Below are positions 54,987-55,623 of a DNA stretch of 64,000 nucleotides, piece after piece; the first letter of the stretch is position 1, and each line of letters opens with the position of its first letter. The stretch lies in NCBI RefSeq assembly GCF_030384885.1, contig NZ_CP128613.1; one strand, 5' to 3'. Made by a program: the position numbers and the translations under genes. Source of the DNA: Escherichia coli. Its GTDB lineage: Bacteria; Pseudomonadota; Gammaproteobacteria; Enterobacterales; Enterobacteriaceae. A model generated the notes under the pieces. The model saw only the letters and a program-made list of their open reading frames with translations, was not told the DNA's origin and did not search any database.

Positions 54987-55623
54987 TCTTCTGAATCACC
55001 GGGCGACAAAATATAACTGAGTTACAAATAAGTACCAGTCGAATGAGTATTATATTAAGAATTTTTGAGTATCGCTGATACAACCAGAAAGCAATGCTAG
55101 CGCAATATTATAGGGCCAGCAATTGAGATTATTAGCAAAAGCATGTTAAGAATTAATCACCGAATTTATATATTAATTATAGTAAGGCAATGAGCTATTT
55201 TTGATAGTAAAAATAAAACAAGTTTATTTGATATATTAAATGAAAAAATTAATCTTGATGGCAGTCTGATTATTGGTGAAGTTTATAGGTCAGTTTTTTT
55301 CGCCAGCGGTTAAAGGAATAGAATCGTCGTATAAAAAAAGGTGTTTTGGGGCGTGTAAAACAACATCTTCACCTTAATGGCGATACAGTTGGTTGAGAGT
55401 CAGCAGGGGGGCAAATCACCTGCAAATAAACACGGCGCATGCTGGCGCGAATATCGCGGATGCGTTCGAGGACAGAAGAACCGACAGGCGGATTCTTCAG
55501 TCGCTCATCGTCCATCACAAAACCTTTGATCAGGTATTCCTGAAGCCGATTAAATATTGAGCATTAGAAAATATCTGGATTGACTGTATTACAAGAGGTT
55601 GGAGAACGTCAGTAGAGGCAAAT

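Follow-up and report, generated by a model that had tools for sequence, protein, structure and literature searches.

Organization and Composition of the selC-setC Gap

The window analyzed here is a 64,000-nucleotide stretch of the Escherichia coli contig NZ_CP128613.1. Its sole tRNA gene, as determined by ARAGORN, was selC, the 3' end of which (55624) faced setC across an intergenic gap, with yicJ starting on the other side of selC at about 55954 on the + strand. The gap extended exactly from 54987 to 55623, i.e., 637 bp (ARAGORN, Rfam and ORF list), in agreement with the initial annotation, which had described a spacer of about 640 bp facing the selC 3' end and devoid of an integrase and of ORFs of 60 codons or more. 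No ORF of at least 60 aa in the ORF list lay wholly within the gap; the biggest ORF inside it had 55 aa (55393-55560, + strand), and two longer ones, of 67 aa (54817-55020) and 88 aa (55599-55865), clipped its edges only. Neither an integrase nor an IS element or island arm sequence was found in the gap, a RhuM fragment being its only protein-family signal, and Rfam at a permissive threshold returned tRNA-Sec and nothing else. The features of the gap and its neighbors are listed in Table 1.

The GC content of the whole gap was 37.4%, vs. 49.0% for the window. Values were lowest in the setC-proximal 397 bp (31.7% on average, with 200-bp windows as low as 26%), compared with 52.1% in the RhuM relic. 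The gap had been described as strongly AT-rich, a term that fits just about 60% of its length, namely the setC-proximal part, but not the relic.

Table 1. Features of the selC-setC gap and related elements in the window.
Feature	Position	Strand	Evidence
selC (tRNA-Sec, anticodon TCA)	55624-55718	-	ARAGORN; Rfam RF01852, 83.8 bits
setC (sugar efflux transporter; 394-aa ORF)	53802-54986	-	ORF list, annotation
Att-core extension (putative), 15 nt	55609-55623	-	Homology with LF82 and occupied genomes ends at 55609
Chromosomal (B') arm of attB, 62 bp	55547-55608	-	E. albertii match, global alignment
RhuM-family internal relic, ~163 bp	55384-55546	-	PGAP, K-12 annotation, Pfam, tblastn
AT-rich setC upstream region, 397 bp	54987-55383	-	Composition, conservation
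Near-copy of the islet 20-mer, InvF/MxiE-type box-like	55189-55209	+	19/21 match to 35039-35059
Copies of the 18-mer	33467-33484 (+), 35040-35057 (+), 45931-45948 (-), 51203-51220 (-), 55190-55207 (+)		Motif scan

The Spacer in K-12 and across E. coli

The selC-setC spacer of K-12 MG1655 was colinear with that of the window, with 612 of 637 positions identical (96%) and 25 differences, comprising 24 substitutions and one 1-bp indel (637 vs. 636 bp). Identity to K-12 was 97.7% for setC, 94.4% for yicL and 98.1% for yicJ, and the divergence of the spacer was in line with that of the neighboring genes (94-98.6% identity). Of the 5426 complete E. coli genomes searched, 4524 matched the spacer, 3617 contained at least 80% of it, and in 2488 a 351-bp probe over the spacer-selC junction was contiguous; by subtraction of the last two figures, the spacer is apart from selC in about 1100 spacer-bearing genomes. 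The spacer closest to that of the window belonged to strain 2013C-4282 (99.8%), and in the closest annotated genome the gap held just a RhuM pseudogene.

Elsewhere in the window, a clean 13,589-bp deletion was observed relative to 2013C-4282, the two sequences being otherwise 99.98-100% identical. The deletion (junction at 42373-42376) joins the interior of adeD to that of iatC/eaeX at a 4-bp microhomology, and takes out adeQ, yicN, a RelE/HTH toxin-antitoxin pair, nepI and most of the adhesin gene. In strain Z142-6 (locus L004, 8001-10600), most of the spacer was replaced by two IS1 copies flanking an N-terminal integrase fragment, just the first 55 bp beside setC being left; this genome illustrates the encroachment of a decayed selC island on the spacer.

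Attachment Site at the selC 3' End

The last 21 nt of selC (55624-55644) corresponded to the segment duplicated as attR in island-bearing genomes, based on alignment with the attR of ETEC4090. Island selC-A of EAEC 042 has a 21-bp selC repeat, and setC, yicL and nlpA are backbone genes (PMC7058095). Identity among attL, attR and empty sites ran 15 nt beyond selC, to 55609, and these 15 nt (ATTTGCCTCTACTGA in the direction of selC) were common to K-12-type, LF82-type and island attL/attR junctions, suggesting that they act as an extension of the att core. In occupied genomes, the spacer lay at the far end of the island and the integrase beside selC. In ETEC4090, the order was P4-like island DNA, the 21-nt repeat of the selC 3' end, K-12-type spacer, and in strain 139 the integrase was located 195 bp from selC.

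When the window was scanned with a 24-mer and a 16-mer of the selC 3' end, allowing up to 3 mismatches, no second copy was detected in the spacer, and the sole match outside selC was a chance-level 16-mer site at 23155. Because real scars may carry small deletions, as in LF82, a gapped local alignment with a 45-nt att probe was also run over 52001-55608. Its best score was 15, in yicL, a value reached by 3% of shuffled probes; as positive controls, the degenerate attR of LF82 scored 19 and that of E. albertii 17. Since neither search recovered a repeat of the selC 3' end, the selC site of the window is empty and unoccupied. A direct repeat, a tyrosine integrase and extra DNA relative to empty-site genomes were all absent.

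selC is a classic integration hotspot, and the gap might be a scar, peculiar to this strain, of a selC island of the LEE, PAI-I, SHI-2 or selC-A type that was recently excised or has decayed. The roughly 1100 genomes with the spacer separated from selC, as well as one genome in which an integrase fragment flanked by IS1 lies between setC and selC, fit such an explanation. Nevertheless, the window spacer was colinear with that of K-12 and with 2488 other contiguous junctions, and it lacked the second copy of the selC 3' end, the integrase, the IS element and the island arm sequence that a scar of this kind would call for. To the limit of the tools used, colinearity with empty-site genomes refutes a recent scar, which we regard as barely credible. 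The initial annotation had left the choice between a remnant of a selC-associated element and the native intergenic region to an alignment with K-12 and a search for att-like repeats: the spacers were colinear and no repeat was present, as the native alternative has it, but the identity was 96% and not 100%. The proposed remnant survives only as the old yicT/RhuM fossil described below, which was already annotated, and no strain-specific remnant was found.

A homologue of the 62-bp selC-proximal stretch was located in E. albertii, after the degenerate attR and downstream of rhuM, window 55645-55543 matching E. albertii locus L092 4509-4608 at 68% (E = 3e-9). The possibility that this stretch is the P' arm of an ancient island was rejected: only its first ~22 nt resembled modern P' arms, and the rest of the match was not significant.

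A Relic of rhuM (yicT)

RefSeq/PGAP placed a partial "RhuM family protein" pseudogene at this position in essentially every genome listed. In K-12, the pseudogene yicT (b4653; 3836425-3836556) falls within the aligned relic, between selC and setC, so that both position and orthologous sequence identify the window fragment with this locus. The translated relic, LQEYLIKGFVMDDERLKNPPVGSSVLERIRDIRASMRRVYLQVICPPADSQPTV, matched the Pfam family PF13310 (E = 2.3e-12; 47.2 bits vs. a cut-off of 33.7), covering profile positions 52-98 of 252; the complete domain in an intact frame was not present. It corresponded to residues 121-185 of the 345-aa RhuM of LF82, with 68% amino-acid identity (tblastn E = 1.3e-19), and tblastn E values ranged from there to 2e-22. 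Relative to full-length RhuM, two in-frame deletions of 8 aa and 3 aa were observed, the start and the C-terminus were gone, and 54 of 345 codons survived. No further RhuM relic was detected by tblastn over the spacer, and a literature search for yicT, or for rhuM with selC in E. coli, yielded nothing specific to the fragment. The AT-rich part was also considered as a hiding place for the 3' half of rhuM, the right end of an island or attR fossils, and no significant match resulted.

The relic frame was open in the window, interrupted by a stop codon in K-12, and shifted by a 1-bp deletion in a G-run in strains KE40 and THO-010. These lesions in other strains argue that the relic is not maintained as a coding sequence and represents a pseudogene fragment rather than a true member of the family. 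They also weigh against the idea that the fragment is a domesticated small gene, i.e., the 49-aa ORF at 55369-55518 on the - strand (yicT), an idea to which the in-frame nature of both deletions, the open frame in the window and the synonymous nature of three of the four substitutions separating window and K-12 in the fragment lend some support. However, the fragment spans so little of the PF13310 profile, its curated annotation is that of a pseudogene, and among six strains it varied at about 7% of columns, i.e., more than the AT-rich setC-proximal part. Domestication is thus extremely improbable in our view, and a pseudogene fragment is the reading retained here.

Full-Length rhuM at selC in Other Genomes

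In strain LF82 (phylogroup B2), the spacer and setC, which together form a K-12-type cassette of 1888 bp (window 53721-55608), were replaced by 2279 bp (locus L003, 10187-12465). The replacement contained a full-length rhuM, located 53 bp from selC, and a gene for a hypothetical protein of 165 aa, and it lacked setC; this pair of genes stands in for the cassette in B2 strains. The flanks were homologous up to 15 nt past selC on one side and to 29 bp upstream of yicL on the other, and the LF82-type haplotype was present in 844 of the 5426 genomes. Downstream of rhuM in LF82 were the right end of an island and a degenerate repeat of selC (TGCGACTCCTGTGATC-GCCAAAATGCCTCT), both with homology to a genuine island end of E. 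albertii. Past this degenerate attR lay another RhuM relic, an older one spanning codons ~166-245 (tblastn E = 1.7e-11), and at least two apparent generations of rhuM are therefore visible in LF82.

In E. albertii CP034212 (locus L092, 1685-5000), island genes were followed by an exact 24-nt selC repeat, an integrase fragment and a full-length rhuM, and then by an island end with a degenerate selC repeat, a K-12-like 77-nt stretch, AT-rich DNA, setC and yicL. As a family member, full-length RhuM matched the phage-defence candidate PDC-S05 of PADLOC (E = 3e-173). In Salmonella, SPI-3 is inserted at tRNA-selC and carries rhuM (PMC3680342). These arrangements suggest that selC islands have repeatedly carried rhuM as their last cargo gene, and the K-12-type relic would be the leftover of an old rhuM island, common to most non-B2 E. 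coli. As a separate reading, the selC-yicL interval of most E. coli may be the residue of repeated insertions of rhuM-bearing islands. The relic lies on the far side of the 77-bp attB flank from selC, a spot at which no relic was detectable in the E. albertii strain studied, so a simple series of deletions starting from the E. albertii arrangement fails to account for the locus, and the order of evolutionary events is one that we can only infer. A candidate for a shorter RhuM relic in E. albertii, after the AATCGG junction, was rejected (score of 10 vs. a shuffle mean of 10.3, not significant).

Several further observations concern the surroundings of setC. In E. albertii CP034212, the tandem island remains upstream of setC include DUF4942 genes, and in the E. 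albertii type strain (loci L086 and L087) the setC upstream region was severed by IS1 and relocated beside waa/tdh genes. Searching genome contigs for SetC returned only SetB-type paralogues (~72%), away from selC; the SetC orthologues of E. albertii were reached by protein search. An ENA metagenome contig (locus L089, 1-3527) encoded a SetC-like protein with 81% identity to SetC vs. ~73% to SetB, located between fruB and yicL-nlpA-yicS and thereby mixing the K-12 neighborhoods of setB and setC. With 4x coverage, this contig could be either an ancestral arrangement or an assembly chimera.

Conservation of the AT-Rich setC Upstream Region

Alignment of six diverse E. coli alleles revealed that about 3% of the first 240 columns, on the setC-proximal side, were variable, compared with ~11% for columns 241-400 and the value given above for the relic. 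The setC-proximal ~240 bp were thus the most conserved part of the spacer, and the last ~150 bp were also recognizably conserved in the setC upstream region of E. albertii. From its position and conservation, the AT-rich part is presumably the promoter and regulatory region of setC. When promoter and terminator consensus sequences were searched for, hits did not exceed expectation, and the setC strand gave no convincing promoter. Like AT-rich DNA elsewhere in E. coli, this part may be a target of nucleoid proteins such as H-NS.

A Box-Like 21-mer in the Spacer and Its Relatives in the Window

The initial annotation had also noted a near-copy of a 20-mer from an islet of the window, and this was recovered as the 21-mer AATGAGCTATTTTTGATAGTA (Table 1). 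The islet is an AT-rich 3.3-kb segment at 33434-36788, between ilvN and uhpA, which is absent from K-12. Its ORFs at 33695-34960 and 35150/35228-36688 (+) encode distant paralogues (26% identity, E = 1e-23) without a Pfam or PDB sequence match. The ilvN-uhpA locus is variable across E. coli, and other strains have a DUF6708 gene there. A second accessory region, the eip/eilA ("selC-B") type III secretion island, lies at 44159-51142, about 4.5 kb from selC, bounded by a truncated iatC/eaeX and by yicS. It contains eilA and genes for an IpaD/SipD-like tip protein, a hypothetical protein, a YopB/SseC-like translocon subunit and a SycD/LcrH-like chaperone. An island of the selC neighborhood is thus present in the window, though not at the tRNA.

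A motif scan with the 18-mer ATGAGCGATTTTTGATAG, allowing up to 2 mismatches, detected five copies in the window vs. 0.06 expected. The four copies outside the spacer were located 60-210 nt upstream of genes and in gene orientation: 60 nt upstream of eicA, which opens the eip operon and encodes a SicA/IpgC-like chaperone, 74 nt upstream of eilA, which encodes a HilA-like regulator, and upstream of the two uncharacterized islet ORFs. The box was perfectly conserved in islet alleles that were just ~81-83% identical overall. Compared with the MxiE box, the islet and eilA copies agreed at 7-8 of 9 strictly conserved positions (PMC3299695). Taken together, the sequences suggest that the ETT2/eip type III secretion regulon has this box as its cognate cis element, and the islet ORFs, each preceded by a box, may encode substrates of type III secretion or belong to the regulon. 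The motif was not found upstream of setB-type loci. An interpretation of the 20-mer as a target-site duplication or att sequence was rejected: the empty ilvN-uhpA site of K-12 is without the 20-mer, which lies upstream of each of the two paralogous ORFs and not at the islet borders.

The spacer copy differed from this family at one of 18 positions (17/18), and it matched 11 of the 15 specified positions of the InvF site consensus (PMC8490769), and 10 of 16 positions, including 6 of 9 strictly conserved ones, of the MxiE box (PMC3299695). Given the motif family, such a sequence is unlikely to be pure chance. If the spacer held a working or recently inactivated InvF/MxiE-type box tied to the ETT2/eip regulon, the box could promote transcription in the direction of selC, antisense to the RhuM relic, or have an effect on setC. 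The number and placement of the other copies, their conservation in divergent islet alleles, and the invariance of the spacer copy in six diverse E. coli spacers are all compatible with this prediction. However, the surrounding 240 bp were equally invariant, so that the conservation is not specific to the box, and E. albertii was without the box at the aligned position. In addition, the sole difference from the family places a T at the conserved G6, a position at which a G6C change nearly abolishes the activity of the MxiE box (PMC3299695). As read by eye, the spacer copy has TTGATA at +21 to +26, where the islet boxes have TGAAAT and TGCAAT, and hence no -10-like hexamer at the spacing of the islet and eilA boxes, i.e., about 20 nt downstream. 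It is oriented away from setC, and downstream in its own orientation there is no gene, just a 9-codon ORF. In an all-against-window test with local-composition shuffles, a 19/21 match occurred in 4% of shuffled spacers. Finally, the copy is present in K-12, and ETT2 has been reported as disrupted in phylogroup A (PMC9241512).

A working or recently inactivated box in the spacer is accordingly a very unlikely prediction, and there is only a slim chance, if a marginally better one, that the 21-mer genuinely belongs, or until recently belonged, to an InvF/MxiE-type regulon of the cryptic ETT2/eip system. Because of the T at G6, the missing -10 hexamer and gene, the orientation, the equally conserved surroundings, the absence from E. 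albertii and the shuffle rate, the spacer copy is probably decayed or fortuitous. Were it functional, the selC-setC spacer would be a T3SS-responsive control region, either as the promoter of a non-coding transcript toward selC or as an input to setC. The box family would be the better lead: it marks eicA, eilA and the two uncharacterized islet genes as one putative ETT2/eip regulon, and these islet genes hold more promise than the spacer.

Origin of the Spacer

The gap is very probably an ordinary K-12-type selC-setC intergenic region with an unoccupied site (an empty attB), composed of three pieces. The first, the selC-proximal 77 bp, would be the chromosomal side of the site at which selC-targeting tyrosine integrases act, with an exchange core likely formed by the last ~21 nt of selC and ~15 nt downstream. 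The second, the ~163-bp dead rhuM fragment (yicT), was probably left by an ancient selC island in which rhuM was the last cargo gene. The third, 397 bp of AT-rich non-coding DNA, is most likely the promoter/regulatory region of setC and may bind H-NS. Nothing in the gap is strain-specific or new in kind, both the spacer and the pseudogene being already known and ordinary, and for the strain of the window the outcome is an unoccupied selC followed by a standard spacer with an annotated pseudogene. The locus nevertheless provides a worked example of how a "native" intergenic region can record, layer upon layer, the turnover of islands at a tRNA hotspot, the layers being the attB flank, the RhuM fossil, the alternative cassettes of B2 strains, and the serial rhuM copies of LF82 and E. 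albertii.

Comparison with Known Systems

The box-like 21-mer resembles the Salmonella InvF site ANNGGNCNTTTTTTNAANGTT (PMC8490769), with which it has the same span and a shared core of C, G, a T-run and A-A-G. In keeping with the InvF/MxiE boxes of SPI-1-type regulons, related copies in the window precede eicA, a homologue of sicA/ipgC, and eilA. Unlike those boxes, the spacer copy has a T at G6, no well-spaced -10 hexamer and no downstream gene.

The selC islands with P4-like integrases (EAEC 042 selC-A, the LEE and PAI-I types, ETEC4090 and strain 139) use the same attachment site as that found in the window. In these genomes a spacer of the window type forms the distal flank, on the attR side, whereas the window itself is without an integrase, island DNA or the 21-nt direct repeat.

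The rhuM gene of SPI-3 and the full-length "virulence RhuM family protein" genes beside selC in LF82 and E. albertii belong to the same family (PF13310) and occupy the same tRNA locus as the window relic. The role of phage-defence candidate indicated by the PDC-S05 match applies to full-length RhuM and is impossible for the relic.

The selC-setC spacer of K-12, with yicT (b4653), has a stop codon in the relic frame, in contrast to the open frame of the window. It is like the window in position, length and the order of its parts, and shares with it both the RhuM fragment and the box-like 21-mer.
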